Below are positions 5,343-54,358 of a stretch of DNA of 64,000 nucleotides, piece after piece. The DNA is taken from contig DATEZQ010000001.1 in the NCBI GenBank assembly GCA_035583355.1, forward strand, positions 75,055 through 139,054, read 5' to 3'. Within the stretch, counting starts at the first letter, position 1. The number at the start of each line of letters is the position of its first letter. This DNA is from Minisyncoccota bacterium. GTDB taxonomy: Bacteria; Patescibacteriota; Minisyncoccia; Phycocordibacterales; UBA6899. The position numbers and the translations under genes were made by a program. The notes beneath the pieces are model-generated. The model did not search any database and was not told where the DNA came from. It saw only the letters and a program-made list of their open reading frames with translations.

Positions 5343-5741
5343 ATGGAAAAGATTGCGCAGTTTGTTCGTGAGAAAAATGAATTACTCCGCGCAACGCCAG
5401 ATCTTTCGCTGCGTACGTTGTATGTTGTTGTATCTCTGTGTCTCGTTGTCTCTGCGTATTTGCTTGGAGAAATGCATGGTCGCTCCAGTGTCGCAGAAAG
5501 CCAATTAAGTGTTTCTGGCGCGTTAGCCTATGTGCCATATGATAAGACGCCGCTTCTTGCTACTGGAAATGGTTCCGAGAAAGCCGCAAAGAATTTTGTG
5601 GCGTCTGTAAGTGGGAAACTCTATTATCCTGCAGATTGTAAGGCGGCACAGCGCATCAAGGAAGAGAATAGAATATGGTTTGCAACACTCGCAGAAGCGA
5701 AATTAAGTGGCTTGTCGCCATCACCGCAATGTAACCGTTAG
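5343..5741 (+). CDS. membrane-anchored protein with C-terminal Ada-like Cys-rich metal-binding domain
   Basis: N-terminal TM helix; C-terminus YYPADCKAAQRIKEENRIWFATLAEAKLSGLSPSPQC resembles the Ada-type metal-binding / sunset-like domain. Confidence 0.5.
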   Translation: MEKIAQFVREKNELLRATPDLSLRTLYVVVSLCLVVSAYLLGEMHGRSSVAESQLSVSGALAYVPYDKTPLLATGNGSEKAAKNFVASVSGKLYYPADCKAAQRIKEENRIWFATLAEAKLSGLSPSPQCNR

Positions 5742-5778
5742 CTTGTGAGACAGTTAGAATGTTCTACGATATAATCAC

Positions 5779-11926: not shown

Positions 11927-12343
11927 ATGGAACAATTCAAGTCAAAAAAAATCCTCGTTGTCGAGGATGAGAAAGATATGAGAGATGTTATCGTTGAGAC
12001 ATTGACGGAAGTCGGTTATCCCGTTGTCTCAGCAGCAGACGCAGTTGAAGGGATGAAGCTCTACCATGATGAGCACCCGGACTTGATCGTCTTAGACATC
12101 CTGATGCCAGGAAAGACAGGACTTGCGCTCCTTAGTGATATACGCAAGGAGCCGGGAGGTGATAAGGTACATGTGATTATGCTCACCAACTATAATCCAA
12201 CAAATAGTAACCTCATTGAGCCAATACTTAAAAGTAATCCGGAATACTATCTGATAAAGAGTAATATATCGATGGATACGCTTGTTGATAAAGTTCGCTC
12301 AAGCTTCGAAATGGAACTAGAAAATAAAAACACCCCTAAGTAG
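11927..12343 (+). CDS. response regulator, receiver domain only
   Basis: KKILVVEDEKDMR...LIVLDILMPGKTGL...IMLTNY; no DNA-binding output domain. Confidence 0.85.
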   Translation: MEQFKSKKILVVEDEKDMRDVIVETLTEVGYPVVSAADAVEGMKLYHDEHPDLIVLDILMPGKTGLALLSDIRKEPGGDKVHVIMLTNYNPTNSNLIEPILKSNPEYYLIKSNISMDTLVDKVRSSFEMELENKNTPK

Positions 12344-27578: not shown

Positions 27579-27679
27579 GGTGGCCTCCTTGTGTAAAGGT
27601 TGGGTATTGGTGGTCACCAATGAGTGTGCTTGGTATAGGTTGGCTTTTTGCTTTTGACACTATACCGAAGTACAGTATC

Positions 27680-28981
27680 ATGGCGCCAATCTATTGCATC
27701 TGCTTGCAAACTACCACTCGGTCATGTTATCGTCAAGAGGTGAAATTGGCTGATTTTAAAGCCACAGAACTGTCCACGAACCCCGGTGTGTATCGATTTC
27801 TCGATGCCGAGGATAATGTACTTTATGTGGGTAAAGCGACAAACCTGCGCCAAAGAGTGCGTAGTTATTTTGATGATGATCTTATCAAGACACGCGGACG
27901 CTTTATTGTTGATATGGTTACCCGTGCGGCCCGAATAGTCTCAGAAGATGCCCCAACGGTACTTGATGCGCTCATTAAGGAGGCGGCATTGATAAAGGAA
28001 ATTCAGCCACCATATAATACTCGAGAGAAGGATAATAGGAGTTTTACCTATATCGTCATTACAAATGAGGATTATCCACGAGTGCTCGCATTACGCGAAC
28101 GTACGATGGCAATGGGTGATGAAGAAGAAGGTCAATACAAACAAGTTTATGGGCCATTCCCAAGTGGTGCAACAGTACGCACACTACTATCGCTCGTCAG
28201 GCGGATAATCCCATTTCGTGATAAGTGCACGCCACATCAAGGTAAGCCATGTTTCCATAAGCAGCTTGGCTTGTGTCCCGGTGTGTGCGATGGTTCTATC
28301 TCGAGCAAGGACTATGGAAAGCTCGTCGCAGAGCTCATGCTTTTCTTTGGAGGTAAGAGAGAAAAGCTTATCACTCAGCTTGAGCAGCAAATGAAAAAGG
28401 CTGCAAAAGCAATGGCTTTTGAAGAAGCGGCAGAATGTAAGCGGGTACTTTTCGCCCTCACTCACATTAACGACGTTGCGCTTATTACTGATGAGACAAG
28501 ACTCGCTTCACAGCGCTCTGCTAAAATACGTGAGCGCGCCTTTCGTATCGAGGGGTACGATATTGCACATCTTTTCGGAACATATACTGTCGGTGTGATG
28601 ACTGTAGTGCATGATGGTAGGCCAGAAAAATCACAGTATCGTAAGTTTAAGATCAGAGAAGAGGAAGGAGTCATAGATGATTTTAAGCGTCTAGAAGAAG
28701 TATTAAGGAGACGCTTCGCGCATAAGGAATGGCAGATACCCGATGTCATTGTTGTTGATGGTGGCCGTGCGCATCTCTTGCGTGCGCGTAGGGTGCTCGA
28801 GCGCTTACATGTCGATGTACCCGTCGTTGCATTGGTGAAGGATGATAGACATAAAGCGAAAGCAATCATTGGTAATCGCACGCTTGCAGAGTCATATCGA
28901 CCGTCAATTGTGCTTGTAAATATGGAGGCACATCGCTTCGCAGTGAACTACCACAGAGAACTCCGAGAAAAGCTCCCTTAG
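27680..28981 (+). CDS. uvrC: excinuclease ABC subunit C homolog (UvrC), short form lacking C-terminal HhH domain
   Basis: GIY-YIG motif GVYRFLDAEDNVLYVGKATNLRQRVRSYF, UvrBC-interaction region, RNaseH-like endonuclease domain (RIEGYDIAHLFGTYTVGVMTV); ends after this domain. Start uncertain: ATG 27620/27680, or TTG 27746 preceded by AAGAGG. Confidence 0.85.
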   Translation: MAPIYCICLQTTTRSCYRQEVKLADFKATELSTNPGVYRFLDAEDNVLYVGKATNLRQRVRSYFDDDLIKTRGRFIVDMVTRAARIVSEDAPTVLDALIKEAALIKEIQPPYNTREKDNRSFTYIVITNEDYPRVLALRERTMAMGDEEEGQYKQVYGPFPSGATVRTLLSLVRRIIPFRDKCTPHQGKPCFHKQLGLCPGVCDGSISSKDYGKLVAELMLFFGGKREKLITQLEQQMKKAAKAMAFEEAAECKRVLFALTHINDVALITDETRLASQRSAKIRERAFRIEGYDIAHLFGTYTVGVMTVVHDGRPEKSQYRKFKIREEEGVIDDFKRLEEVLRRRFAHKEWQIPDVIVVDGGRAHLLRARRVLERLHVDVPVVALVKDDRHKAKAIIGNRTLAESYRPSIVLVNMEAHRFAVNYHRELREKLP

Positions 28982-30163: not shown

Positions 30164-30236
30164 GGGCCCATAGCTCAGTTGGTAGAGCAGCGCATTTGCA
30201 ATGCGAAGGTCGCAGGTTCAAATCCTGTTGGGTCCA
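30164..30236 (+). tRNA. tRNA-Ala (anticodon TGC), no encoded CCA
   Basis: Manual cloverleaf: acceptor GGGCCCA/TGGGTCC with the Ala identity pair G3:U70, D-arm GCTC-AGTTGGTA-GAGC, anticodon loop TTTGCAA, T-arm GCAGG-TTCAAAT-CCTGT, discriminator A. Confidence 0.9.
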
Positions 30237-30300
30237 CAGAGGTAGAAAAAAGAGCGCAAGCTCTTTTTTCTTTTACCTCTGTGAGACCCAACAGGATTTG
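30218..30300. repeat. extended imperfect palindrome: tRNA-Ala 3' end / terminator-like hairpin / inverted copy of tRNA 3' end
   Basis: TCAAATCCTGTTGGGTCCACAGAGGTAGAAAAAAGAGC-GCAA-GCTCTTTTTTCTTTTACCTCTGTGAGACCCAACAGGATTTGA; arms about 38 nt. Confidence 0.7.
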
Positions 30301-30446
30301 AAAGACGGAGCCGGGCACCGTCGCCCGGCGCTGATTTTATCCGGCCAAAGGCCGTGATAAATCCAGCCGCGCGCACGGTCGGCGAGTCGGGGTCGCGAGT
30401 ACTTAGCAAATAAGGAGCGAAGCTCCGCATTTGCTTAGTAACTTGT
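30237..30446 (+). repeat. tRNA-3'-trailer structured repeat element, copy E1 (truncated), candidate ncRNA
   Basis: Reverse complement aligns with E2-E4: shares the CGCGACCCCGACTCGCCGAC...GCGCGCGGCTGGATTT core, the GCCGGGC/GCCCGGC hairpin, the GGATTTATC...GATAAATCC hairpin and a CTTAG-flanked variable hairpin; lacks the distal ~90 nt. Confidence 0.6.
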
Positions 30447-30625
30447 GACCAAATCCTGTTGGGTCCTCCATTCTTTCTTTTGTATTTGAATTTGCATTTC
30501 CGGTGACAGAGGGGCAAATCCTGTTGGGTCTCTCTGGTTACGAGCGAAGCACCTTATTGTATTTGTGACTCGTGACCAAATCCTGTTGGGTCCTCTGCAT
30601 TCTTGTATTTTGCATTTCTCCTAAT
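30447..30625 (+). repeat. array of direct repeats of the tRNA-Ala 3' end (att-like fragments)
   Basis: CCAAATCCTGTTGGGTCC at 30449-30466, CAAATCCTGTTGGGTC at 30515-30530, CCAAATCCTGTTGGGTCC at 30576-30593; copies 1 and 3 sit in a ~60-nt duplicated unit (GTGACCAAATCCTGTTGGGTCCTC...ATTC..TTGTATTT..GCATTTC). Confidence 0.7.
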
Positions 30626-30654
30626 ATAAAAACAGACGCAAGCGTCTGTCTTTA
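30626..30654 (+). terminator. rho-independent terminator closing the tRNA-Ala/element region
   Basis: AAAAACAGACGC-AA-GCGTCTGTCTTTATTT. Confidence 0.55.
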
Positions 30655-30775
30655 TTTCGTACAACACATTTTCGCAAATGTACCTCTATCCGACTTCTTA
30701 CTAAGAAGATCAATATAAATTAAAGAGGGCGACCTCTTGGAATTATATTGACCCAGTTTTCTGAAAACCGAAAAC

Positions 30776-30955
30776 TTAATAAGCGAGCTCCTCCTCGAGG
30801 ACGCCGCAATAGCAGTGTTCTGGGTTAGTCCATTCTCGCCCGCAACGCATGCATGGGTGCTTACCTTCCTGCGCCTTTTCAAGCGCAAGCTCATGTGCGA
30901 GGGTTTCGATGGATGTGCAGAACGCACACTCACAATATGGTCGCTCGTTGGCCAT
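30776..30955 (-). CDS. small Cys-rich (zinc-ribbon-like) protein, 59 aa
   Basis: MANERPYCECAFCTSIETLAHELALEKAQEGKHPCMRCGREWTNPEHCYCGVLEEELAY has CxC..C...CxxC...CxC; below the ORF-track length cutoff; terminator hairpin downstream (30732-30750). Confidence 0.4.
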   Translation of the reverse strand: MANERPYCECAFCTSIETLAHELALEKAQEGKHPCMRCGREWTNPEHCYCGVLEEELAY

Positions 30956-43745: not shown

Positions 43746-45131
43746 ATGTTTGATTATTATATCCAGTCCTATAATGATTTTGTTGCATCGCCGTATTACG
43801 AGCCGACGTTGGTGTTCTTGGGCTATGCGTATAACGTAGTTACTGCTTTTGCATTCATTTGGGCGCCACTTTGGATGTGGGACGTGCTGGAGCCCATGCT
43901 CCAAAAGCTTAAGCGTGCAGAATTTCTCAAGAAGCTGGAATTTACGACATTGGAAATTCGCGTACCTCGAAACATAGATAAATCTCCGCTTGCTATGGAA
44001 CTCGTTTTGCAGGCTTTGCATCAGCCATTCAAGCCAACTAACAGACTGGAGAAAATCACAAAAGGGAAGGTGAATTCTTGGTTTTCCTTAGAGATGGTCT
44101 CTACAGAAGGTGCGGTACATTTCTATGTCTACACTCCAAAGGAGTATGTGAAACTGATAACGACACATCTCTATTCTCAGTATCCTGATGTTGAGGTGCA
44201 TGAAACTCCCGATTACGTAACGAAAGTTCCATTTGGTCGCGATAAGGAAGAATGGGATCTGCACGGTACCGAATTCATTCTTTCAAAGGCAGATCCATAC
44301 CCTATAAAGACTTACGTTGACTATGGTCTTGATAAGCTTGATCTCAAAGAGGAGTTCAAGATTGATCCAATGACCGTTGTTCTTGAGTATCTTGGTTCTA
44401 TTGGACGTGGTCAGCATGCGTGGATTCAGATTATGATTCAAGCGCACGAGGAGCGTTATGAAGTAAAAGGTCAGTCTCGCGATTGGGATAAGCTCATCAT
44501 TTATCAGGATTATGAGGGCTTCAAAAAAAGTAAGCCTAAAGGAAGAGACTGGGGTAAATTCTTTGAAGGAAAGTGGTGGGAAGTTGGCAGTGAGGATTGG
44601 ATGAAATTCGTTACGAATAATTGGTGGACTCCTGCAACTCAGGATTGGAAAAAAGAAGCAGACAGCCTTATTAAGGCGCTCAAGGAAAAAGCGGGAGATA
44701 AGATGTCTGCCGTGCAGCGAAAGGAGATAGAGGCTATGGAGCGCTCTGTTACAAAGAATGGATTTGATGTTGGTATACGTGCGCTTTATATTGCGCGCAA
44801 GGATAAATATGATCCATCAAATATTGCAGGTCTCATGGGCGTGCTTAAGCAATTTTCATCCGTAGAACTAAACGGTTTCAAGGATAATAATGTTACGAAG
44901 ATCGACAAAAAGCAGAAAATCTATAACGATGCAGATCTTGTAAAAGCAAAAAAGAAAATGTTTGATAAGTATTTGCGCAGAGGATTCTTCTATGAAAAGG
45001 GAAAGCCTTTTGTTCTCAATACAGAAGAGCTTGCGACAATATTTCACTTCCCAGGAAGAGTGTCAGCAACACCAACATTCAGTCGCATCGAATCACGCAA
45101 GGCCGAGCCGCCAAGCAACCTTCCAATCTAG
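43746..45131 (+). CDS. hypothetical protein with Trp-rich segment, N-terminal TM
   Basis: 461 aa; WGKFFEGKWWEVGSEDWMKFVTNNWWTPATQDWKKE; no family recognised. Confidence 0.55.
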   Translation: MFDYYIQSYNDFVASPYYEPTLVFLGYAYNVVTAFAFIWAPLWMWDVLEPMLQKLKRAEFLKKLEFTTLEIRVPRNIDKSPLAMELVLQALHQPFKPTNRLEKITKGKVNSWFSLEMVSTEGAVHFYVYTPKEYVKLITTHLYSQYPDVEVHETPDYVTKVPFGRDKEEWDLHGTEFILSKADPYPIKTYVDYGLDKLDLKEEFKIDPMTVVLEYLGSIGRGQHAWIQIMIQAHEERYEVKGQSRDWDKLIIYQDYEGFKKSKPKGRDWGKFFEGKWWEVGSEDWMKFVTNNWWTPATQDWKKEADSLIKALKEKAGDKMSAVQRKEIEAMERSVTKNGFDVGIRALYIARKDKYDPSNIAGLMGVLKQFSSVELNGFKDNNVTKIDKKQKIYNDADLVKAKKKMFDKYLRRGFFYEKGKPFVLNTEELATIFHFPGRVSATPTFSRIESRKAEPPSNLPI

Positions 45132-45169
45132 CTTCAAAGCTAGATTGTATTGCTCATTCAAGACCAATT

Positions 45170-46198
45170 ATGGATAATATTGTTGACCTTTCCACAAATC
45201 TGCAGAATGGCGTGCCGTCAGTGCCGCCCCCAAAGCATGCTTCGCATACAGTGTTTTATGTTATTACCTCAATACTTCTTTTGTTAACATCGGCAGGACT
45301 CGGTGTGTTTTATGCATTTATGTTCACTCCACCGGTAGATTTCGTTCCTCGTACTATTGTGCGTATTCCCGATGGAGCAAGTGTCCAAGAAATTGCTACG
45401 GTGCTTACAAATGCACATATTATCAAGTCGCCAGAAGCTTTTGCTGTACTCGTGCGTATTAAGGGTGATGATACACGCATGCATCAAGGTGAGTATTATT
45501 TCGAATCGCCGACAGCACTTCCATATGTCATTGATCGTATTGCAGCTGCTGATTTTGGTATTGAAAATGTAAAAGTGCTCATCCCTGAAGGGTATACCAG
45601 GCAAGAGATGGCAAAGGTATTTGCGGCTGAATTCCCAGATTTTTCTGCTGACGCATTTATGAATGAGACCAAGGATATGGAGGGATATCTATTTCCTGAC
45701 ACTTACCGTTTCTTCCGTACCGCGACGAGCGGCCAGGTGGTAAGTGATATGAGAAAGACTTTTCAGCTCAAGACTGCGGACTTACAAAAGGAGGCACAGC
45801 TACAGGAAAAGAGATGGTCTGATATTGTAATTACTGCTTCTTTAGTAGAGCTAGAAGGGAAGACTGCTGAGGATCGTGCGAAGATCGCGGACATCATCTA
45901 TCGAAGAATTGCGGCGAATATGCCCCTGCAGCTCGATGCCCCATTTCTATACATCATGAATAAAGCCTCGCTCCAGCTCACTCAGGAAGATCTTTATACG
46001 CAGTCTCCCTATAATACGTACCGCAATAAAGGTCTTCCGCCGACCCCGATTGCTTCGCCAGGACTTATGAGTATCAGTGCTGCACTGCATCCCATTGCGA
46101 ATGAATATCTCTATTATCTTTCGGATAAGGCAGGCATAATTCACTACGCTAAGGATTTTAATGAGCACCGAAAAAATAAGCAGCTCTATTTGAAGTAG
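45170..46198 (+). CDS. mltG: endolytic murein transglycosylase MltG (YceG family)
   Basis: N-terminal TM and the YceG signature (LQLDAPFLYIMNK...YNTYRNKGLPPTPIASPG). Confidence 0.85.
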   Translation: MDNIVDLSTNLQNGVPSVPPPKHASHTVFYVITSILLLLTSAGLGVFYAFMFTPPVDFVPRTIVRIPDGASVQEIATVLTNAHIIKSPEAFAVLVRIKGDDTRMHQGEYYFESPTALPYVIDRIAAADFGIENVKVLIPEGYTRQEMAKVFAAEFPDFSADAFMNETKDMEGYLFPDTYRFFRTATSGQVVSDMRKTFQLKTADLQKEAQLQEKRWSDIVITASLVELEGKTAEDRAKIADIIYRRIAANMPLQLDAPFLYIMNKASLQLTQEDLYTQSPYNTYRNKGLPPTPIASPGLMSISAALHPIANEYLYYLSDKAGIIHYAKDFNEHRKNKQLYLK

Positions 46199-46280
46199 TG
46201 ATAATACACCCATATGCTTGGGTGTTTTTGTTTTTCTGTGCACATCGGGCTGATATTCTTATGCTATAATTGAAGCATAT

Positions 46281-47486
46281 ATGTCCTTCTTTAGAGGTCT
46301 TTTCTCTGGTAATAGTGTTGCGCGGCACATACTTGTCGTCGATGTAGGCTCTGGTTCTATCGGAGTAGCTTTGGTGCGTTTGGAAAAGAGTGCAACTCCA
46401 ATGATTTTGGGTACCGCACGTCAAGTCATACCATTTCAAGAGAAACTTAATGTACAGCGTTTTGTTACGCTCATGCAGGAGTCGCTCAATGCTGCGACCG
46501 ATGCAGTCATGGAGCATAATAAGGATATTATCCCTCATACGGTTATGTTTGGACTTGCTTCTCCTTGGAATACATCCCAGACAAGGCTCGTTCATCTCGA
46601 CCAGCCCGATGACTTTCTGGTTACCGAAAAAGGATTAAGACAGATCATTGAGAAAGAGGGAGGCATGTTCACTTCTGCGCCTTTTGACCCTAATGGACCA
46701 AAGGAGCTCATGAAGAACGTACTCATTGAGTCACGCGCAATGCAGATCAAACTTAATGGATACGAAGTTGATTCACCAATTGGACGACGGGCTCGAGAGC
46801 TTGATATCGCACTCTATTTGTCGGTGATGCCCGAGCGTATTAAGGATTCGTTCTCAGATACAATTGGTAGGCGTTGGCCGCATGCCGACCTACGTTTCCA
46901 CTCATTCATGTATGCTGCTTTCAACGCAGTTCGCGATACATTTGCAGAGAGCGCCTCGTTTGTGGTGGTTGATGTTGCTGGTGAGGTAACCGATGTTGCC
47001 CTTGTGCGAGATAACGTTCTCCTTGAGTCGCTCTCTTTCCCGCTTGGCTATCATGCAATTACTCGAATGACGATGCGAGAGCTCGGACTTCAAAGCGCTG
47101 CGGCGGACACTGAAGTTGCACTCTATCTTGAGGGTAAGTCGAGTGTAGAACGAGCGAAGCAAATGGAGCAGATCTTTGCAAAAGTTGTGCGCGAATGGAA
47201 GCTTTTATTTATCGGCGCACTTACACAACTTGGAGAGCAATATCCGATTCCTCATGTTATTTACCACTTTGTGGATGAAGAATACGTTACTTATTACGGG
47301 GACGCTATGCGTGAATCAGGGAGTAGGGTATTTGGTGAAGAACAGGGTGACTTTACCGTTCATTCTCTTGATGAAGAGTTCCTTCTTCGCTTTATGAAGC
47401 TTGCTGAGGGTCAGCGTGCAGATATCTTCTTGTGTGTTATTATTATGATATTAGACAAGCTTCTTGAGGCTGATTTGAAGCATTAA
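46281..47486 (+). CDS. actin-like ATPase fold protein (FtsA/PilM-like), putative
   Basis: ILVVDVGSGSIGVALV phosphate-1-like motif at the N-terminus and a second ...VVVDVAGEVTDVALV motif, typical of ASKHA-fold duplication. Confidence 0.55.
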   Translation: MSFFRGLFSGNSVARHILVVDVGSGSIGVALVRLEKSATPMILGTARQVIPFQEKLNVQRFVTLMQESLNAATDAVMEHNKDIIPHTVMFGLASPWNTSQTRLVHLDQPDDFLVTEKGLRQIIEKEGGMFTSAPFDPNGPKELMKNVLIESRAMQIKLNGYEVDSPIGRRARELDIALYLSVMPERIKDSFSDTIGRRWPHADLRFHSFMYAAFNAVRDTFAESASFVVVDVAGEVTDVALVRDNVLLESLSFPLGYHAITRMTMRELGLQSAAADTEVALYLEGKSSVERAKQMEQIFAKVVREWKLLFIGALTQLGEQYPIPHVIYHFVDEEYVTYYGDAMRESGSRVFGEEQGDFTVHSLDEEFLLRFMKLAEGQRADIFLCVIIMILDKLLEADLKH

Positions 47487-47495
47487 TTCTAAGCT

Positions 47496-49196
47496 ATGAT
47501 CAATCGTACTGATTCACTCGAAGGTGGTAATGAGACTCCGGCGCCAAAGCGTCGCATTATTCGACATATTGTAAGGCGAGTTCCAAAGCAGCAACCTGTT
47601 GCTGATGTTTTGCCGATGACTGCAGCTGATGCAGTTGCTGCACAGGTGCTTTCAAAGAATGCGCAGGCTGAGCAGAAAGAGCCAGAGGTAGTCTTGCCCT
47701 TGAGCCCCGTGCGTACACCAATGACGGGCCGCGTACTTGAGCCGAGTGAGGAGGCGCATGCATTACTATCTGCCGATGAAGATGAGAAGCCATTCCCGGT
47801 AATTGAGTATCCTGCAATGCCAACAATTGAGCCGAAGAATATGGTGCTCGAGCAGTTTGCTGCGCGCAAAGAGAAGAGTCGCGATGAGTTGAAAGCAGCG
47901 ACACCTACTGTTCCCGCTGCAACGGGCCGCAGTCCTATTGAAAGCATTTGGCCATATATTGCCGCTGCAAAACAGCATACAAGTGAGTCTCGCGATGAGC
48001 GTGAGGTTGAAATGCCAAGCGCAAATGATCGTCAGCGTTCTGAGAGTGTCTCAGAGTTTGAACCGGAGCATAACTATTTTGCTTGGATACCTTGGGTACT
48101 TGGACCTATTATCGTTATTGCGCTCATTATTGCGGGAGTGTCATACTTTTCGGGTGCAACAGTTGTGATCACGCCGAAGACTGCGCAAGCGGATCTCCTT
48201 GCAGATCTTTCTACGGTAAAGAATGGTGATCCAGTAAAGGAATATCCACTTTCTGTGCTCGCAATCGAAGATAAGGTATTTGTTGATGTTCCTGCTACAG
48301 AGTCAAAGACATCAGTGGCAACAGCATCAGGCAAGGTGACTTTGTTCAACAAGCAGACTGTTGCCCAGAAGCTCATTAAGACTACTCGTTTTGAAGCCAC
48401 AGATGGAAAGATTTACCGCATTCATGAGAATGTAACTATTCCTGCAGCAAAGGCAGGGAAGCCAGGTACTCTTGATGTTGTTGTTTATGCAGAATCATCT
48501 GGCCCAGACTATAATCGAAAGGGTCCAGCTGAATTTACGCTTCCTGGATTCAAGGGTAAGCCACAGTTCACTCAGGTAGGAGCAAATCTTACTGGCGAAA
48601 TTTCTGGTGGTTCAGCAGGTGTAAAGAAGTCTGTTCCAAATGATGTGCTTGATGAGGTTGCTCAGAAGCTTAGAATTGAGCTTGAGAATAAACTCCGCGC
48701 TCGTGCGACACAGGAAATACTTCCAACACAGATTGGATATGAAGCCTTGTATCAGTTTACCTATAAGGAACCTGTACTCGAGGCGTCAGATGCGCCTGAG
48801 AAGGCACGAGCAGTGCTCGCAGGTACACTTTCCGCACCAGTATTTGATCGCGCAATGCTTACTAAGGCACTAGCGAAACTGGCGCTTAAGGATTATGTAG
48901 ATGAGGACATTTCTCTTGCGCATATTGAGTTGCTTCCTATTAAGTATGTCGAGGGACAGAAGGTTGATCTCATGACCGATGAAAAGGTGACGTTCCATGT
49001 AGAGGGAAGTGCAAACTTCATTTGGAAGGTAGATACCGATACATTCACTCGTGCTTTGCTTAATGTTTCAAAGGATGATGTGAAGAAAGTGATGACGAGA
49101 TTCCCAAGCATTGATCATGTTGATGCGACATTGAGGCCTTTCTGGAAGCAGTACTTCCCGGGGAGTGTGAAGGATTTCGTGGTGACGGTGAAATAG
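47496..49196 (+). CDS. hypothetical membrane-anchored protein with disordered N-terminal region
   Basis: 566 aa; low-complexity N-terminus, single TM (WIPWVLGPIIVIALIIAGV), large extracytoplasmic domain; terminator hairpin at 49211-49240. Confidence 0.55.
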   Translation: MINRTDSLEGGNETPAPKRRIIRHIVRRVPKQQPVADVLPMTAADAVAAQVLSKNAQAEQKEPEVVLPLSPVRTPMTGRVLEPSEEAHALLSADEDEKPFPVIEYPAMPTIEPKNMVLEQFAARKEKSRDELKAATPTVPAATGRSPIESIWPYIAAAKQHTSESRDEREVEMPSANDRQRSESVSEFEPEHNYFAWIPWVLGPIIVIALIIAGVSYFSGATVVITPKTAQADLLADLSTVKNGDPVKEYPLSVLAIEDKVFVDVPATESKTSVATASGKVTLFNKQTVAQKLIKTTRFEATDGKIYRIHENVTIPAAKAGKPGTLDVVVYAESSGPDYNRKGPAEFTLPGFKGKPQFTQVGANLTGEISGGSAGVKKSVPNDVLDEVAQKLRIELENKLRARATQEILPTQIGYEALYQFTYKEPVLEASDAPEKARAVLAGTLSAPVFDRAMLTKALAKLALKDYVDEDISLAHIELLPIKYVEGQKVDLMTDEKVTFHVEGSANFIWKVDTDTFTRALLNVSKDDVKKVMTRFPSIDHVDATLRPFWKQYFPGSVKDFVVTVK

Positions 49197-49240: not shown

Positions 49241-49539
49241 GATGCGAGGGGAGCCAAAAACCGTTCCGGTTTTTGACTCATTGAACGCTTCGCGTGCATG
49301 AATCAGAGTCGAGTTCCTCGCCCCTTCGTCTCTAAGTATTCTGCTCCAAGCATTCGCAGAATACTAAGAGCGAGTAGGGCCAGGGCTCACCGACCGTGCA
49401 CGCGGCTGGATTTCTCACGGCCCTAGCAAGGGCCGGACAAATCAGCGCCGGGTGACGGTGCCCGGCTCCGCCCTTCGAGTTCTCGAGGGGGTGGCAGCAC
49501 ATAGCAAAAAAGACGCTTTCGCGTCTTTTTTGTATGCTG
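49241..49539 (-). repeat. tRNA-3'-trailer structured repeat element, copy E2 (downstream of tRNA-Lys), candidate ncRNA
   Basis: Full-length copy, in order along the tRNA strand: terminator-like hairpin (49505-49532), inverted copy of the tRNA-Lys 3' end (49474-49491), GCCGGG..CCCGGC hairpin, GGATTT..AAATC hairpin, conserved core 49375-49413, CTAAG-flanked variable hairpin, distal AAAAACCG-TTC-CGGTTTTT hairpin. Confidence 0.6.
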
Positions 49540-49612
49540 TCCCCCCTCGAGGACTCGAACCTCGGACCGTCTCGTTAAGAGCGAGCTGCTCTACCAACTG
49601 AGCTAAGGAGGG
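49540..49612 (-). tRNA. tRNA-Lys (anticodon CTT), no encoded CCA
   Basis: Manual fold of the reverse complement: acceptor CCCTCCT/AGGGGGG, D-arm GCTC-AGTTGGTA-GAGC, anticodon loop CTCTTAA, T-arm CGAGG-TTCGAGT-CCTCG, discriminator A. Confidence 0.85.
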
Positions 49613-49620
49613 ATGGGGAT

Positions 49621-49648
49621 ATAGTACCAAATCTACAAAATATTGCAA
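49621..49648 (-). promoter_or_regulatory. putative promoter of tRNA-Lys (TTGCAA-16-TACTAT)
   Basis: On the minus strand ttgcaatattttgtagatttggtactat ends about 8 nt before the tRNA 5' end; preceded by the terminator of the upstream gene. Confidence 0.45.
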
Positions 49649-49716
49649 GTGTTTTACATAAAGAAAAAGGTGTACAACGCTGTGTTGTACACCTTTTGAG
49701 GTGGTCATGCGCGGCC

Positions 49717-50079
49717 TTATTCATCGAGGAATTCCTGCATCTTCCAGAGCTCGTCGCGCATGAGCGTGAGGATCTTGGGGTTCTCGATGCGGCCGTGGCC
49801 GTGGCGGTATTCACCGAGCTTGTCGGTGCAGATGTGCTCACCGGTGGTCTGATTCACGCGGTGCTTCTTCTTGACGAGGCACGAGCACTCATCCTTCTTT
49901 GGAATGAGGATTTCGACCGTAAAGGTCTCGGTCGGCTCACTCACATCGTCGGCGCGGGTGCGGGCGACATGGGTGACGAGGCCGACACGAAGCTTCTGGG
50001 TCTTGTGCTTTTTGGCAGCGTCGCGACTGAGCACGACGTTCATGCCGGCATTGATGGGGTCAAGAACGATGGGAAGCAT
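49717..50079 (-). CDS. small Cys/His-rich hypothetical protein (120 aa)
   Basis: Start at MLPIVLDP; contains CSC...HRV...HIC...HGHG cluster; own terminator (49670-49705). Confidence 0.5.
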   Translation of the reverse strand: MLPIVLDPINAGMNVVLSRDAAKKHKTQKLRVGLVTHVARTRADDVSEPTETFTVEILIPKKDECSCLVKKKHRVNQTTGEHICTDKLGEYRHGHGRIENPKILTLMRDELWKMQEFLDE

Positions 50080-50203
50080 GTGCACTCCTTTGATATGCGT
50101 GATTGAGGAACTGCTTGTCGCATAGTAACATACAGTATACAAATGTCAAGGAATGAAAAAGGCTCGCATTGTGCGAGCCTCGTTGGCCGGAGCCAGGGAA
50201 GTA

Positions 50204-50515
50204 CTAGTCCTGATCCTCAGGAAAGGTGATCTCCGAGAACATTCCCGTGGGGATGTTCTGGACATCATGGGTCGGCGTGGCACCGAACCGCTTGCTGCAC
50301 TCCTTGCACGTGGCCAGGCCATGGCGGTGATTGAAGCGGAGTTCTCCCTTGCAGGAGTCGCACTTCTTTTTGATCACAGGCTTGGCCATCGTGACGGTCG
50401 TGACGCCATCCCGATAGTGGGACTTCACGAAGCCGACGGAGCTCGAGAGCTTGAGCTTGGCGACGATCTCTTTCGAGAGGACGACCATGGTGCCGGGGGA
50501 GAGCTGAGAGTTCAT
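50204..50515 (-). CDS. small zinc-ribbon protein (103 aa)
   Basis: Start at MNSQLSPG; C-terminal CDSCKGELRF...CKECSKRF zinc-ribbon pattern. Confidence 0.5.
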   Translation of the reverse strand: MNSQLSPGTMVVLSKEIVAKLKLSSSVGFVKSHYRDGVTTVTMAKPVIKKKCDSCKGELRFNHRHGLATCKECSKRFGATPTHDVQNIPTGMFSEITFPEDQD

Positions 50516-50600
50516 CAGAACCCTTTCAAGGAAAATGGAACGGAACGTCCGATCCGTTGTTACAATAGCATGGATTAGGGTGGAAGTCAATAGGTGGGGA

Positions 50601-50900
50601 TACGATACGAGGGGAGCCGAAAAACCCTGCGGGTTTTTGACTCATGGAACGCTTCGCGCACAGGAATCGGAGTCGAGAGACTCGCCCCTTTGTCACTAAG
50701 TCTTTTGGCGTAGTAACGCCAAAACGACTAAGTGCAAGTAGGGCCAGGACTCGCCGACTGCGCGCACGGCTGGATTTACCACGAGCGAAGCTCGGGTAAA
50801 TCCGCGCCGGTGCGGCAGTAGCACCGGCTCCGTCCTTCGAGTCCCGCTCCGGGTCTCAGTGGTTAACAAAAAAGAGCTTACGCTCTTTTTTGAACCACTG
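50601..50900 (-). repeat. tRNA-3'-trailer structured repeat element, copy E3 (downstream of tRNA-Leu), candidate ncRNA
   Basis: Aligns with E2 over its whole length; hairpins at 50859-50900 (AAAAAAGAGC-TTAC-GCTCTTTTTT core), 50806-50827, 50768-50807, 50695-50731 (CTAAG-flanked), 50616-50640; inverted tRNA-Leu 3' end copy at 50836-50858; 30-nt block GACTCGCCGACTGCGCGCACGGCTGGATTT (50748-50777) identical in E4. Confidence 0.6.
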
Positions 50901-50983
50901 TGCCCGGGGCGGGACTCGAACCCGCACGCCCGTGAGAGCGGGAGATTTTAAGTCTCCTGCGGCTACCATTACGCCACCCGGAC
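50901..50983 (-). tRNA. tRNA-Leu (anticodon TAA), long variable arm, no encoded CCA
   Basis: Reverse complement GTCCGGGTGGCGTAATGGTAGCCGCAGGAGACTTAAAATCTCC-CGCTCTCACGGGCG-TGCGGGTTCGAGTCCCGCCCCGGGCA; anticodon loop CTTAAAA. Confidence 0.85.
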
Positions 50984-51021: not shown

Positions 51022-51053
51022 AGAAAAACCGCCCTGATGGGGCGGTATGATGC

Positions 51054-51632
51054 TTAGCAGACGGGATGTCCGAGGCGCATACGCACCGCTTCAATCACAG
51101 TCTGAATCGATGAATCTTCAAGGGGGTTACTAATGGTGAAATTGGCACGGCTACCAATGTCTGAGGTAAATTGTTCATTCAACGCTGAGTCTTCTTTGAG
51201 GAATTGTTCCCAAGTCATTGTATCCTCACCAGACTTCTCTTTTCTTTCAAGGAGGCGTTTGAAGCGCACTTCTTGGGGTGCGGTGACATAGATAATGAGG
51301 TTCTGCTTGAAGCTGCGCACTGCCTCCTCGTCGGTTAACCAGCGCACGCCATCTAGGAAAAGAATTTCCTCTGTCATATTCTTTGCACGCGCAACGAGTG
51401 CACGGGAAAGTGTTCCTTTCCCAAAGCCACTATCGAGAAGTTGTGCCATGACCTGAAGGTTTTCTCGAGACTCTGTGATGCCAAAAGTCTTAAGCCCTTC
51501 GGCGAGTATACTTGAAAATCGAAGTTCTTTGAATGAATGCGGAAAGATTGCGCTCCGAATGAGTCTCATGGCAGTGCTTTTGCCCGCACCGTTTTCCCCG
51601 ACGAATCCAACACAGATCGGTTCAGACATAGA
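51054..51632 (-). CDS. P-loop NTPase, nucleoside/nucleotide-kinase-like
   Basis: Walker A GFVGENGAGKST at the N-terminus (start MSEPICVG), FLDGVRW motif, about 190 aa as for small kinases. Confidence 0.6.
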   Translation of the reverse strand, partial: SMSEPICVGFVGENGAGKSTAMRLIRSAIFPHSFKELRFSSILAEGLKTFGITESRENLQVMAQLLDSGFGKGTLSRALVARAKNMTEEILFLDGVRWLTDEEAVRSFKQNLIIYVTAPQEVRFKRLLERKEKSGEDTMTWEQFLKEDSALNEQFTSDIGSRANFTISNPLEDSSIQTVIEAVRMRLGHPVC

Positions 51633-51717
51633 TGCTCCTGTAGAGTACTTCTTTATCCAATATAGCGTGAATGATGTATTTTGCAATGGAATGTGTGATA
51701 GTGGTATACTATTGTAT

Positions 51718-52077
51718 ATGGATAACACTGCAAATTTCATTTTCGGGATTGATGTGACGCGTAATGATATTACTCCGACCGAGGTTCGTGATGCGCTTAT
51801 TCCTTGCTTTGCTGCTGCTCATCGCATGGCGCTTTTGGAACAAGAGAAGCCTGGCAATCTTTCACCACGAGAGTTTGATGGAATGAGTCTCGCAAATGCG
51901 GAACTGGTAATCAAGAAATTCTTCTATGAGCTTGGTGCTGATTATGATCATCCGACAAAAAAGAATCTAGAGGATGTGATATTGAAACTAGCAGAGTATT
52001 CAAAGAATTTTAGAAGTGATGCGGTGATTAAGCAAAATAAGCAGGAGATGTGGAGGTTGATTGATAGGTTGAGTTAG
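51718..52077 (+). CDS. hypothetical protein (119 aa)
   Basis: Start at MDNTANFIFG with TATACT -10 upstream; divergent from the P-loop gene; no domain recognised. Confidence 0.45.
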   Translation: MDNTANFIFGIDVTRNDITPTEVRDALIPCFAAAHRMALLEQEKPGNLSPREFDGMSLANAELVIKKFFYELGADYDHPTKKNLEDVILKLAEYSKNFRSDAVIKQNKQEMWRLIDRLS

Positions 52078-52084
52078 AATACAG

Positions 52085-52387
52085 AATTACAATACAAGGG
52101 CACTCAAAAACCTTGGGGTTTTGAGTGAAGGAGCGCAAGAACGCGCGAAATCGGAGTTCGGGAATCGGTCACAAGTTTCTAAGTTTTCTTCTCCGCACTG
52201 CTCGAAGAAAACTAAGAACTCGCGACCCCGACTCGCCGACTGCGCGCACGGCTGGATTTATCACGGCTCAGAGAGCCGGATAAAATCAGCAGCCGGTGCG
52301 GCAGTAGCACCGGCTCCGTCTTTCGATTCCCGCCCGTGCTGAAAAATGAAACAATCCCAAAGCTTTCGCTTTGGGATTGTCATTTTG
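52085..52387 (-). repeat. tRNA-3'-trailer structured repeat element, copy E4 (downstream of tRNA-Cys), candidate ncRNA
   Basis: Same architecture as E2/E3: hairpin 52340-52386 (arms extend into the tRNA 3' end), inverted tRNA-Cys 3' copy 52322-52339, GCCGGTGC..GCACCGGC hairpin, GGATTTATC..GATAAAATC hairpin, core 52230-52259 identical to E3, CTAAG-flanked hairpin 52179-52216, distal hairpin CTCAAAACC-TTGG-GGTTTTGAG. Confidence 0.6.
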
Positions 52388-52459
52388 AGGCACGGGCGGG
52401 AATCGAACCCGCGCATGTCGGTTTTGCAGACCGAAGCGTTACCACTTCGCCACCGTGCC
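52388..52459 (-). tRNA. tRNA-Cys (anticodon GCA), no encoded CCA
   Basis: Reverse complement GGCACGG-TG-GCG-AAGTGGTAA-CGC-T-TCGGT-CTGCAAA-ACCGA-CATG-CGCGGGTTCGATTCCCGC-CCGTGCC-T; discriminator U as expected for Cys. Confidence 0.85.
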
Positions 52460-52514: not shown

Positions 52515-52877
52515 TTACTTCTCTTCTGTAGTTAGTTCTTCTTCATCAAGGAGCTCCGTCACACGCTGTCTATTGTATTCACCTTCATCGATGAGAAAGC
52601 GTACATAAGGGATGACATGCAACTTTGCTCGCTTCTTCATGAAGTCGCGAAATTCTTCGCGACCACGGTTGAGGAAATCGAGTGCACCTTTTTCTGCAGT
52701 GCGAGGCATCACGGAGAGCATGATGTTTGCCTGCTTCAAGTCATTTGAAAGCATGATACGCGTCACTGTAAGGAGCGACTGCCTGTTGGTATGTCGTGCG
52801 ACATACTGTGCGGCAAGGTCCTTGATGACGTGTGCCATACGCTCATCCTTGATTTGGTAGATCTTGTCTTTTTCCAT
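52515..52877 (-). CDS. rbfA: ribosome-binding factor A
   Basis: About 120 aa KH-like RbfA pattern (SLLTVTRIMLSNDLKQANIMLSV), located immediately downstream of infB. Confidence 0.8.
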   Translation of the reverse strand: MEKDKIYQIKDERMAHVIKDLAAQYVARHTNRQSLLTVTRIMLSNDLKQANIMLSVMPRTAEKGALDFLNRGREEFRDFMKKRAKLHVIPYVRFLIDEGEYNRQRVTELLDEEELTTEEK

Positions 52878-54358
52878 TATTGTTTGCGTTCAATGATAAA
52901 TGGAACAAGAATATCGCGTTCTGCAATGGTCATGCGAGCCTCTACCATGAGACCACAGTCATTGCCTTCAAGTACTTCGGGAGATTTCATCTTTGATTGC
53001 TGGAGCTCGAGTACGCGGCCTTCACCAATCTCTACGCCACGGCGCATGATTGTAAAACGTGCATCACGAGTGATCTTTCCAGACTCAACTCGTCCTCCAA
53101 GAACCTGCTTATCCTTCTGCTCAGAGAAGAAGCGCAGTACCTTTAGTTCGCCAAGCTTTGTCTTGACCTCGACATGGGGAGCACGCTCCTTGATGAGGCC
53201 ATCGATGAACTCGGTGAGCTTGTAGATGATATTGAAATCGTGTGCAGGAACGTTATTGCGCAAGATGAGCTCAGCGGCAAGGGGATCGGTCTTAACGCCA
53301 AAAGCGATAATGACTGCACCTTCTGCGCCGACTGCGAGCTTTGCGTCGTTCTCACTGATATTTCCAACGCCCTTCGAGATGATACGGAGCTGGACTCGTT
53401 CATGGCTAAACTTCGCAAGTTCACCCTCGATTGCCTCGAGTGTTCCTGCAACATCCGTTCGGATGATAAGTGGAATGACCACGGTATCTTTGTTGCGATT
53501 TGCGGTGAATGTCTTACCTGCGGGTGCAACTGGAAGCGTTGCTGCTGCCTCGGCCTCTTTCTTCGTCATGACCATGGTGACCGTTGCGCCCACCTTTGGT
53601 ACGCTTGACCATCCTGTAATACGAATAGGTGAAGAGAACGTTGCACTGTCGATTGGCTTACCGAGATAGTTCTCGATTACGCGGAGGGGGACATATGAAC
53701 CTTCGCAGACTGCGAAGCCACCTTTCTTGATTGTTCCATTGAGGATAATGAGTGTTGCGGTTGCACCCTTCTTTGGATCCATACGTGACTCAATCACAAC
53801 AGCTTCGAGGGGAGCATCATACTCACCAGTAAGCCCTTCGAGCTCTGCGGTAAGGAGGAGGAGGTCGAGAAGTGCATCGACGCCAGTACCGCTCTTGGCA
53901 GAGATTGGTGCGAACGAAATATCGCCACCGTAACCTTCAACGAGAATGTCTGCTTCGGCAAGTGTCTGCTTTGTCTTCTCGATATTTGCATTCGGCTTAT
54001 CGATCTTATTTATCGCGACCACAAAAGGAATACCCGCTTCCTTGATGGCTTTGTATGCTTCGATTGTTTGTGCCTTCACTCCGTCCTCGGCAGAGACAAC
54101 GAGTACTGCGATATCAGCAACCTTTGCGCCACGAGCTCGCATTCCGGTAAACGCCTGGTGTCCAGGAGTGTCGAGGAAGGTGATGCGCTTGATCTCGCCA
54201 GTAGGAGTCTTGTGGTCAACCTCATATGCACTAATGTGCTGAGTGATGCCACCAGCTTCTGTAGCGACGATATTGGTATTGCGGATATAGTCAAGAAGAG
54301 TGGACTTTCCGTGGTCCACATGTCCCATGATGACGATGATTGGTGGTCTTTCAGACAT
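52877..54358 (-). CDS. infB: translation initiation factor IF-2 (short form: G domain + C-terminal domains only)
   Basis: G1 [14 protein letters not shown]3 DTPGHQAF, G4 NKID; 493 aa, lacking the long N-terminal region of E. coli-type IF-2. Confidence 0.95.

Follow-up and report, generated by a model that had tools for sequence, protein, structure and literature searches.

Mirrored tRNA 3' ends as the variable tips of a repeated non-coding, possibly guide-like cassette in a small group of Paceibacterota bacteria

The inverted copy of its own 3' end that follows each tRNA gene of the analysed window (the whole 64-kb stretch of DNA) was found to be the variable end of a conserved, structured, non-coding cassette. 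The cassette is a lineage-specific, multi-copy family that occurs only on the 3' flank of tRNA and tmRNA genes; its members are gained, tandemly duplicated and decaying, and modules have been swapped between loci and genomes; its hosts form a small group within the Paceibacterota of the candidate phyla radiation. The cassette seems to be a mobile element that carries within itself the address of the tRNA to which it belongs, and no description of such elements was found in the literature. Its likeliest mode of action, on our analysis, would be that of a scaffold-plus-guide RNA (like an omega RNA or crRNA), with a folded-DNA mimic of an attachment site as the main rival; the reading of the mirrored copy as a target-matching tip, and of scaffold and tip together as guide RNA for an effector encoded elsewhere, is given slightly less than an even chance.

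Mirrored 3' ends in the window: four tRNA genes (Ala-UGC, Lys-CUU, Leu-UAA and Cys-GCA; Table 1) were found, and at 4/4 the inverted copy begins 44–45 nt beyond the gene, a long terminator hairpin lying between the two. With a 19-nt probe the copies scored 16–17/19, the maximum of the null being 13–14/19 (ca. 1750 random 450-nt stretches of the same window); in the comparison between tRNAs the cognate one scored 17–18/19 against each copy and the three non-cognate ones far less, at 9–14. The inverted copies reported by the first-pass annotation at Ala, Lys, Leu and Cys are thus real and far above chance (17–18/18 over tRNA positions 54–71), they covary with tRNA identity as it had stated, copy and terminator together do form a long palindrome, and the hairpin core AAAAAAGAGC-NNNN-GCTCTTTTTT was again found to be common to the Ala and Leu loci. 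Generic T-arm similarity, which the annotation had named as the finding that would overturn it, or plain chance, could account for the first 5–7 bases (TTCRANY), these being common to all tRNAs; it is refuted by the scores and by the acceptor strand, which is matched too in 14 units, and its probability is practically negligible. The claim that the match extends into acceptor-specific bases holds with a restriction: the acceptor bases are covered, the match stops sharply at position 71, and the base that follows the copy (position 72) is T in 12/15 units, independent of the tRNA base there.

Cassette architecture: at 4/4 window tRNAs the copy abuts a conserved scaffold of ca. 150 nt with terminal CTCCGYYY. 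The annotation had described the copy as not one fixed element end; this was misleading, because the copy is the variable tip of a fixed, recurring, structured element present at every locus. The conserved element fused to the copy had escaped it. Read with the copy at the 3' end, the cassette is composed of an optional 5' module, segment C', the scaffold, segment B (the copy), a conserved T and a bidirectional terminator, followed by the convergent tRNA gene. In 15 units of three genomes B stands directly after an invariant CTCCG and three pyrimidines (CTCCGYYY(TT)), and in 14 of these it matches tRNA positions 54–71 at 15–18 of the 18 bases; mismatches are scattered, without seed pattern, and in the inner Cys unit of L027, which adjoins its tRNA, a 27-nt hairpin is inserted within B. 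A variable segment of fixed length right after the scaffold is the layout of IS200/IS605 PATE and omega RNAs, and it was found in the 15 units. At the other end of the scaffold stands C', an opposite-sense copy (reverse complement) of tRNA positions 56–72; on the tRNA strand it is a direct repeat of these positions, perfect (17/17) at window Ala, both Cys units of L027 and the Tyr unit of L056. B is better conserved than C'. The 5' module occurs only upstream of outermost units, and the relic C' copies of the Ala locus each precede just the first 12–15 nt of a scaffold (subtype 1; subtype 2/3-like start). The central hairpins are G+C-rich with a T-run on both strands and were called, or fold, as intrinsic terminators, an identity that accounts for the centre of the palindrome only.

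Table 1. Position of tRNA genes and cassette parts in the window
Feature	Position	Strand	Remarks
tRNA-Ala(UGC)	30164..30237	+	ARAGORN, Rfam; CCA not encoded; target and partner of Ala cassette
Bidirectional terminator hairpin, Ala	30237..30281	.	common to tRNA-Ala and cassette
B, Ala	30285..30302	-	copy of tRNA-Ala positions 54–71, 18/18; guide-like; conserved T next
Scaffold, Ala	30303..30449	-	long P1 hairpin and family I core, end ...CCGGCTCCGTCT
C', Ala	30450..30466	-	reverse complement of tRNA-Ala positions 56–72, 17/17; direct repeat of tRNA 3' end on + strand
Two relic units, Ala locus	30467..30593	-	extra C' copies 30515–30530 and 30577–30593
5' module, Lys	49256..49303	+	hairpin AAAAACCGTTCCGGTTTTT, then TTGACTCAT, then small covarying hairpin
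C' position, Lys	49304..49320	+	degenerate
Scaffold, Lys	49321..49473	+	conserved
B, Lys	49474..49491	+	copy of tRNA-Lys positions 54–71, 17/18
Bidirectional terminator hairpin, Lys	49494..49541	.	
tRNA-Lys(CUU)	49539..49612	-	ARAGORN, Rfam
5' module, Leu	50620..50667	+	
C' position, Leu	50668..50684	+	match left only in 6–8 nt closest to T-loop
Scaffold, Leu	50685..50835	+	conserved
B, Leu	50836..50853	+	copy of tRNA-Leu positions 54–71, 17/18; locus of the first-pass annotation
Bidirectional terminator hairpin, Leu	50857..50900	.	
tRNA-Leu(UAA)	50900..50983	-	ARAGORN, Rfam
5' module, Cys	52106..52150	+	
C' position, Cys	52151..52167	+	GGGAATCG matching, remainder degenerate
Scaffold, Cys	52168..52321	+	conserved
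B, Cys	52322..52339	+	copy of tRNA-Cys positions 54–71, 18/18
Bidirectional terminator hairpin, Cys	52342..52388	.	
tRNA-Cys(GCA)	52387..52459	-	ARAGORN, Rfam

Scaffold fold, strand and coding potential: the predicted fold is Y-shaped, with the long P1 hairpin and a core that GRCTCGSC...SGCTCCGYYY closes. It is strongly supported by covariation: pairing is kept in 96.6% of cells, and 22/53 pairs have changed on both sides; 0/500 shuffles were as good, and slid controls paired at 27–45% only. The helices contain 453 Watson–Crick cells, 6 G.U and 7 A.C, i.e., G.U is as rare as A.C, and this near-pure Watson–Crick pattern fits pairing at the DNA level as much as at the RNA level. Analysis of the coding potential of the units gave no conserved reading frame; promoter prediction and inspection gave no convincing promoter for the cassette. 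Rfam 15 was scanned on both strands (the whole window at the gathering threshold, two loci at E ≤ 10) and yielded tRNAs and noise only, with no scaffold match, the IscB omega RNA family (HEARO) included.

Distribution and turnover: the annotation had asked whether other tRNA genes carry the same mirrored ends; the pattern does recur, and a unit was found behind 14 of the 16 sampled tRNA/tmRNA genes of three related genomes, the tmRNA gene included. The two unit-free genes are a tRNA-Ser with encoded CCA, beside a serine-recombinase prophage-like region, and a tRNA-Pro with tRNA-Ala 16 nt further on. All complete nhmmer matches are downstream of a tRNA or tmRNA gene; for the partial copies at the contig ends of L029 and L050 the neighbour is not visible; no solo copy was found in the window, the relatives' loci or the unrelated loci examined. 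The cassettes are short, non-coding, hairpin-forming, multi-copy and located in terminator regions, and they break short-read assemblies, all as known for REP/BIME, REPIN and MITE repeats; unlike these, they are not dispersed among many kinds of intergenic region, part of each cassette is specific for its neighbour, and the structure is much larger and more elaborate.

The more distant relative L032 has kept the order infB-rbfA-tRNA-Cys-Leu-Lys with the tRNAs 47–143 bp apart, an identical tRNA-Cys 3' end and zero units. Tandem arrays were observed at Cys, Leu and Lys (L027), Val (L007) and Ala(CGC) (L056). At the orthologous Leu and Lys loci B and terminator are homologous and the scaffold families are different; the Ala(UGC) unit of the window shares with the one at Ala(CGC) in L056 a P1 module of 68 nt at 98.5% identity, and the cores of these two units differ (the efflux adaptor protein of L056 has 78% identity to its window counterpart). 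B tracks a lineage-specific C/T difference in the T-stem of tRNA-Lys between two genomes, and the terminator stems carry compensatory changes between loci. Gain and loss, tandem arrays, relics and scaffold swapping characterise a mobile cassette and not a signal for tRNA processing. An exact-pattern scan of 185,579 species genomes gave true matches in the relative SKS1.bin43 only (6 matches were spurious); in the metagenome collection 15/15 matches were spurious, with zero true copies, scans of viral contigs with the scaffold motifs gave zero true matches, and nothing matched in phage BLAST.

Search for an effector: Pfam and NCBIfam searches covered 43 window ORFs and 20 from the relative. Neither the 64-kb window nor ca. 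30 kb of the relative's loci L002, L003, L006 and L007 yielded a TnpB, IscB, Cas protein, Y1/HUH transposase, tyrosine recombinase or reverse transcriptase; likewise absent from the window and these loci were TnpA, IntI and Xer recombinases and the Cas12k, TnsB, TnsC and TniQ domains, the units measuring 0.2–0.3 kb only. The lone recombinase-type match was a large serine recombinase of L003, located in a separate prophage-like region. Several small ORFs occur between the tRNAs: one for a P-loop kinase, two for AbrB-like/zinc-ribbon paralogues and, upstream of the Cys unit, one for a protein of 119 aa. They were rejected as effectors because they are without relevant domains and inconsistently linked to the units, two of them being wrongly oriented.

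Proposed mechanism: the cassette would be a mobile element homing to tRNA 3' ends, with scaffold and B as a single guide RNA, the guide being 3'-terminal as in a TnpB omega RNA or a Cas12 crRNA. The effector, encoded at another place in the genome, would be steered by this RNA to the DNA of the cognate tRNA gene between T-loop and acceptor; (R)GTT, universal in the T-arm, may serve as the adjacent motif, and the cassette's own copy of B, preceded by YYTT, would be exempt from targeting. The 17-bp direct repeats formed by the tRNA 3' end and C' are a candidate route for entry, exit and duplication of the cassette. Template switching across the terminator hairpin, which homogenises inverted repeats, may keep B cognate or reprogramme it once a cassette has moved. 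We know of no precedent for the setting of a guide by copying a neighbour across a hairpin. Template switching itself creates, homogenises and expands inverted-repeat arms (PMC8794818, PMC13100816, PMC8604942), and where the annotation could name no mechanism for a target-specific inverted duplication, a documented one thus exists (PMC8794818, PMC13100816); here it is a candidate only, and the sharp boundaries on both sides of B are not expected from simple palindrome growth. Against the guide reading count the negative searches for an effector, a promoter and scaffold relatives given above, the pairing pattern, which fits DNA as well as RNA, and the scattered mismatches and interrupted B. Moreover, C' is complementary to B, so that its transcription would sequester the guide, and an intact target lies beside every cassette, so that tRNA genes of the host itself would be exposed to an effector that cleaves.

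A precedent for such a design is offered by the type V-K CAST elements, whose Cas12k guides are of 17 nt, with a GTN motif, and use tRNA genes as attachment sites (10.1101/2021.02.06.429022). In both cases a dedicated guide borne by the element matches the adjoining tRNA gene, many different tRNAs and other structural RNA genes are used, and the lengths agree (positions 56–72 of C', or 56–71 and the T of B, are 17 nt and follow GTT). Unlike these elements, the cassettes have, in the sequence examined, no Cas12k, TnsB/C or TniQ, no CRISPR repeat or array and no tracrRNA; the whole cassette is non-coding and of ca. 0.2–0.3 kb, its guide is fused to its own 150-nt scaffold, the hosts are Patescibacteria instead of cyanobacteria, and nearly all tRNAs are occupied. 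A more specific proposal, which we consider possible and rather doubtful, is that of a new RNA-guided system of Patescibacteria: each tRNA/tmRNA gene would have a compact guide RNA (scaffold and a guide of 16–18 nt) 45 bp away, the effector would be unlinked, GTT would be the motif, and guides would be reprogrammed by copying across the terminator hairpin, not by acquisition of Cas1/Cas2 type. The purpose of such a system could be the homing of the cassette, or the occupation or protection of a classical tRNA integration hot spot. If the scaffold and the 18-nt tip are guide RNA, a host genome that is probably very small would hold dozens of guides, one per tRNA gene, as a natural multiplex; the effector could be new.

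The main rival, which we regard as unlikely, is that the cassette moves as DNA, the scaffold being a structural spacer and no guide RNA being made. Within a single-stranded intermediate, pairing of C' with B, or of B with the tRNA arm across the terminator, would rebuild the T-loop-to-acceptor duplex as a hairpin stem, and a recombinase would swap this stem with the chromosomal tRNA gene (cf. integron attC × attI; CTX-phage attP hairpin × dif). The almost exclusively Watson–Crick pairing given above is consistent with this, as are the covariation-supported fold, the inverted repeats around a structured centre (17-bp repeats of alternating orientation, like the R''/R' boxes of attC) that could fold into a duplex recombination site, and the arrays of small cassettes beside one fixed site (here at five tRNAs). 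Units flanked by direct repeats of positions 56–72, perfect at the four units named above, point the same way, as do the blocks of identity from T-loop to 3' end and the use of tmRNA. Such blocks and the use of tmRNA genes were reportedly described by Williams in 2002 as typical of integrase sites in tRNA genes. Islands and prophages inserted there by tyrosine integrases are likewise flanked by the T-loop-to-3'-end repeat, leave the tRNA intact and accrete in tandem at one tRNA; unlike them, the cassette is an insert of ca. 230–300 bp with neither integrase nor other gene, includes a further copy, inverted and joined to the conserved scaffold, and occupies virtually all tRNAs. From attC and the CTX attP hairpin it differs in the base of the stem (TTCRA...TYGAA, with tRNA-specific arms, vs RYYYAAC/GTTRRRY or dif-like boxes), in that the sequence examined yielded no integrase, and in a cassette body that is the terminator only. 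Also against the rival, no recombinase lies near any unit, the serine recombinase of L003 belonging to a separate region; the arms differ for each tRNA, so that a sequence-reading protein would need another recognition route; B is far better conserved than C', contrary to what a symmetric stem predicts; and the palindrome is interrupted by the conserved T at position 72. Were the rival correct, this would be the first cassette system to dock at the T-loop of tRNA genes with a folded copy of each target.

The remaining explanations are less probable still. An ordinary non-autonomous IS200/IS605 derivative (PATE) with a TnpB omega RNA (reRNA), whose right end would be the scaffold and whose flanking DNA, read as guide, would be B, seems improbable. 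The two share a structured scaffold of suitable size (ca. 130–150 nt) fused to a 3' guide of the 16-nt class (positions 56–71), a guide tied to neighbouring DNA, which would give cognate specificity without acquisition machinery, hairpin-richness and many protein-less copies per genome. However, YTCG or TTTG stands directly before the left end of the scaffold and RGTT (or RG) before the tRNA target, so that the left-end motif is not the target-adjacent motif; the flanks, when joined, do not restore a tRNA gene and form a palindrome from two tRNA 3' ends; what the guide matches is a gene on the opposite strand 45 nt off, not just the flank of a simple insertion; each unit has its own terminator and the second inverted copy C'; only tRNA/tmRNA genes are used; and neither tnpA nor tnpB (window and the relative's scanned loci), nor sequence or Rfam kinship, was seen. 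About as slim is the chance of an RNA or terminator that serves the host, tuning termination, 3' maturation or quality control of tRNAs without encoded CCA, or shielding the integration hot spot from other mobile elements. This broadens the annotation's proposal that an alternative fold of tRNA and trailer affects 3' processing, of which the refolding stands: the read-through transcript is predicted to form a hairpin of ca. 60 bp with a minimum free energy ca. 21–23 kcal/mol lower and loss of the cloverleaf, which could mark it for decay. Nearly all terminal tRNAs and the tmRNA gene carry units, the unit-bearing tRNA genes are without encoded CCA, and the sole unit-free stand-alone tRNA has it encoded. 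The effect on processing fares worse, since the copy lies beyond a strong intrinsic terminator and the cassette behaves as a mobile one; tandem copies, truncated relics, an interrupted B and swaps of scaffold type are unexpected for a housekeeping device, the relative with the identical tRNA-Cys 3' end does without units, and the conserved 150-nt scaffold is left without a role. Marginally less probable again is a passive by-product, in which template switching extended terminator hairpins near a resident repeat outward and left a functionless copy of the tRNA end; the documented building of inverted-repeat arms by this process (PMC8794818, PMC13100816, PMC8604942), the almost perfectly Watson–Crick stems and the compensatory changes in the terminator stems speak for it, and the same two boundaries in 15 units (start at T54 after CTCCGYYY, end at 71, then a non-matching T) speak against it; C' and the restriction of the repeat to tRNA/tmRNA genes are left unexplained.

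Other identities were rejected. A tRNA-like structure or minihelix has no local T-stem to rest on, and C' complements the 3' strand and does not reproduce the 5' strand (A3-U70 in the Ala unit). A primer-binding site or tRNA-primed reverse transcription, a retron, a DGR, a group I intron (reported at position 35/36 only; PMC13011429), an IS110 bridge RNA and a TIGR-Tas array were set aside for unfit architecture, or because no reverse-transcriptase gene is present in the sequence examined.

Public contigs were found to terminate within cassettes; the cassettes break short-read assemblies of the host genomes and produce spurious gene calls across the tRNA flanks.

Past all four tRNA genes of the window (ARAGORN and Rfam; CCA encoded in none), the loci, read directly, contained a long hairpin flanked on either side by A-runs and T-runs; beyond it, the tRNA 3' end recurred in inverted orientation. 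With a 19-nt probe, own-tRNA copies scored 16–17/19, against a chance maximum of 13–14/19 in ~1750 random 450-nt stretches of the window itself; for each copy the cognate fit was 17–18 vs 9–14 for the other three tRNAs. Both claims of the first-pass annotation, that each tRNA 3' end is mirrored downstream and that the copy follows tRNA identity, were borne out, and chance was excluded.

tRNA genes of the window, and 5' modules of the cassettes in the window and in loci of the relative SKS1.bin43
Feature	Sequence	Coordinates	Strand	Source
tRNA-Ala-UGC	window	30164-30237	+	ARAGORN + Rfam
tRNA-Lys-CUU	window	49539-49612	-	ARAGORN + Rfam
tRNA-Leu-UAA	window	50900-50983	-	ARAGORN + Rfam
tRNA-Cys-GCA	window	52387-52459	-	ARAGORN + Rfam
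5' module	window	49256-49303		
5' module	window	50620-50667		
5' module	window	52106-52150		
5' module	L002	5002-5017		
5' module	L006	7815-7830		
5' module	L007	5290-5305		

The DNA beyond the copies was aligned, and at each of the four tRNAs the copy (B) formed one end of a conserved ~150-nt element (mean column identity 72% over the four window loci) with long invariant blocks, e.g., CGGCTGGATTT..CACG and CCGGCTCCG. This element had been overlooked in the first-pass annotation. Each unit, read with B towards its 3' end, was composed of C', P1 hairpin, core, B, a conserved T and a terminator, and was followed by the convergent tRNA gene. C' was the reverse complement of tRNA positions 56–72 (17/17 at the window Ala locus, degenerate at the other window loci); P1, a long hairpin, was conserved at its base (CACTAAGT...ACTAAGTG) and hypervariable at its top; the scaffold core was closed by GRCTCGSC...SGCTCCGYYY. 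A Y-shaped fold with C' paired to the start of B was predicted from 9 units (RNAalifold): 96.6% of cells were standard pairs, 22 of 53 pairs had changed on both sides, the covariation was matched by 0/500 shuffles, and slid controls paired at 27–45% only. No conserved reading frame was found in the units, and no scaffold relative in Rfam 15 (both strands, even at E ≤ 10). The helices comprised 453 Watson–Crick cells, 6 G·U and 7 A·C; G·U was as rare as A·C. This pattern is not usual in a selected RNA and is consistent with base pairing in DNA.

In 15/15 units (three genomes) B started directly after CTCCG and three pyrimidines, and in 14 of these it matched tRNA positions 54–71 at 15–18 of 18; position 72 was T in 12/15, whether the tRNA base there was C or G. 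A lineage-specific compensated change in the T-stem of tRNA-Lys was tracked by B (CCTCG in the window, CCTTG in SKS1.bin43). B looks like a defined variable slot of a cassette, not like a palindrome simply grown outward. In the SKS1.bin43 locus L027, the inner Cys unit (nearest tRNA-Cys) carried within B, at 12030–12060, a 27-nt hairpin, GAAAGCACC-TGATGA-AGGTGCTTTC, which separated TTCGATTCCCG from CCCGTG.

By IF-2 homology the window belongs to a Candidatus Paceibacterota bacterium, its IF-2 being 100% identical to a protein annotated as from a MAG of that group. An exact-pattern scan (one genome per species) gave true matches only in the MAG SKS1.bin43, IF-2 of which is 89% identical to that of the window; the matches from a metagenome scan and from four scans of viral sequences were all spurious. 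Units of SKS1.bin43 followed tRNA-Leu(CAA), tRNA-Val(GAC), tRNA-Val(UAC; two in tandem) and the tmRNA gene, B being cognate at each; at tRNA-Arg(UCU) the mirrored copy was perfect and the contig stopped short of the scaffold. L027 was syntenic with the window (infB-rbfA-tRNA-Cys...Leu...Lys), with tandem units at Cys (2), Leu (3) and Lys (2). A groundwater relative (L056; efflux adaptor protein 78% identical) had units at tRNA-Tyr and tRNA-Ala(CGC), and in a relative of 75% IF-2 identity the contig terminated within a unit. In the three best-sampled genomes, 14 of 16 tRNA/tmRNA genes bore units; the exceptions were tRNA-Pro, with tRNA-Ala following after 16 nt, and a CCA-encoding tRNA-Ser adjoining a serine-recombinase prophage-like region. 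The 67%-identical relative L032 had the gene order of the window, with tRNA-Cys, tRNA-Leu and tRNA-Lys 47–143 bp apart (12011–12284) and no units or mirrored copies at these genes (best 10–12/19). The prophage-like or integrative region (L003 of SKS1.bin43, 2718–6617; HTH protein, LexA/CI-like S24 repressor, 549-aa large serine recombinase) adjoined tRNA-Ser(CGA), which, encoding CCA unlike the other tRNAs and free of a cassette, is probably foreign. Downstream of this tRNA (6420–6495, minus strand) lay another inverted repeat, ATGTCCAAGTT...AACTTGGACAAT, around a hairpin-rich stretch of ~70 nt and unrelated to the cassette family.

At the window Ala locus, one complete unit was accompanied by two relics; in either relic a C', perfect or nearly so, ran into just the first 12–15 nt of a scaffold of a different subtype. 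Tandem partners had identical B and terminator (69 nt in L007, 76 nt in L056), and their scaffolds could differ; the 17-nt copy between them, perfect at Cys in L027, was a tRNA end caught between units. At the orthologous Leu and Lys loci of the window and SKS1.bin43, B and terminator were homologous and the core families different; a 68-nt P1 module was 98.5% identical between the window Ala(UGC) and L056 Ala(CGC) units, the cores of which differ. Public assemblies repeatedly broke or had gaps within cassettes (L050 1–125, L029 12880–12926, L007 6020–6073, end of L028; run of N, L027 13777–13789), and gene callers placed spurious ORFs over units (e.g., L027 11908–12369 and 15301–15774, L056 966–1385). 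Because of relics, tandem arrays, scaffold swaps, P1 sharing and assembly breaks taken together, the cassettes are a multi-copy, modular, fast-turning-over family that is acquired and duplicated at the 3' ends of tRNAs; its modules are swapped among loci and probably also from genome to genome. Recombination at the 17-bp direct repeats, whether unequal or site-specific, may produce the arrays.

Bracketed by terminators, the units are built like a single guide RNA that has its guide at the 3' end (TnpB omega RNA, Cas12 crRNA), i.e., a constant scaffold and a fixed-length variable segment equal to a nearby DNA target. Since B has the tRNA sense, its RNA could hybridise to the template strand of the tRNA gene, not to the tRNA. 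In the gene, the universal (R)GTT of the T-arm stands before the target; before the B of the cassette stands YYTT, which could exempt that copy from targeting. Positions 56–72, directly after GTT, are 17 nt; attachment-site guides of Cas12k transposons are reported to be 17 nt with a GTN motif and target tRNA genes (10.1101/2021.02.06.429022), so that guide length and motif agree. Because of this anatomy, the (R)GTT/YYTT contrast and the Cas12k numbers, a homing cassette that bears its own address and is used by an effector encoded at another place in the genome is favoured, the whole chain with slightly less than even confidence; we regard the repeated, mobile nature of the cassette as shown, and infer its guide RNA. 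B might be made cognate by template switching, the tRNA arm being copied across the terminator into the slot; such switching across inverted repeats homogenises and extends hairpin arms (PMC8794818, PMC13100816). Passive palindrome growth alone leaves fixed boundaries, C' and tRNA restriction unexplained and is scarcely probable.

Several points weaken the guide reading: no effector, promoter or transcribed strand was established in the window and the scanned relative loci; C' is complementary to B, and its transcription would sequester B; G·U pairs are as rare as A·C; a hairpin interrupts B in one unit next to its tRNA; and every cassette has an undamaged tRNA target at its side. Its main rival, unlikely in our judgment, is a DNA-only cassette. 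When single-stranded, the inverted arms of such a cassette would fold to imitate the duplex of the tRNA site, in the manner of integron attC sites or the attP hairpin of CTX phage; the near-pure Watson–Crick helices speak for it. Membership in the IS200/IS605 PATE family is very unlikely: the flanks do not follow its logic, Rfam gave no match, and the available sequence has no tnp genes. A role in host termination or processing, broadened from the 3'-processing idea of the first-pass annotation, survived only as thermodynamically possible refolding on read-through (gain ~21–23 kcal/mol); scaffold, arrays, relics and the empty relative are left unexplained by it, and it is equally improbable. 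The cassettes work like tRNA-gene-homing systems and guide-bearing elements, yet fit the criteria of none of these; neither Rfam 15 nor the literature searched describes the family, and it could conceivably be an RNA-guided system of a new kind, though this is rather doubtful.

A 5' module was found upstream of the outermost unit only, and was missing from inner array units and the window Ala locus. It consisted of GGGGAGCC, hairpin AAAACCGTTCCGGTTT(TT), (T)TGACTCAT/GAGTTT and a second, small hairpin with covariation; the first hairpin resembles a bidirectional terminator and TTGACT a –35 box, no good –10 box being found after it. Between the window tRNAs, 49620–50600 and 51050–52080 are stretches of ~1 kb with extra small genes, vs the short spacers of L032. 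A 119-aa ORFan (72% identical in SKS1.bin43) ended just upstream of the window Cys unit; the others encoded a 228-aa P-loop kinase-like protein and two paralogues of ~105–120 aa with AbrB-like N-terminus and CxxC motifs. These genes may be cargo that came with the cassettes. Just past the Ala relics, a small cysteine-rich ORF (30652–30933, minus strand; MANERPYCECAFCTSIETLAHELALEKAQEGKHPCMRCGREWTNPEHCYCGVLEEELAY) had its own terminator and no family match. Directly upstream of the Lys cassette, an operon-like cluster (43746–49196), conserved in SKS1.bin43 and without linkage to cassettes, encoded a 461-aa membrane protein (DUF8128 per the relative's annotation), YceG/MltG, a 401-aa actin-fold (FtsA/PilM-like) protein and a 566-aa membrane protein. 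Housekeeping proteins were unusually short (52877–54358, 27620–28981, 24412–27018; IF-2 493 aa, UvrC 453 aa, UvrA 868 aa), which fits a candidate-phyla-radiation genome.
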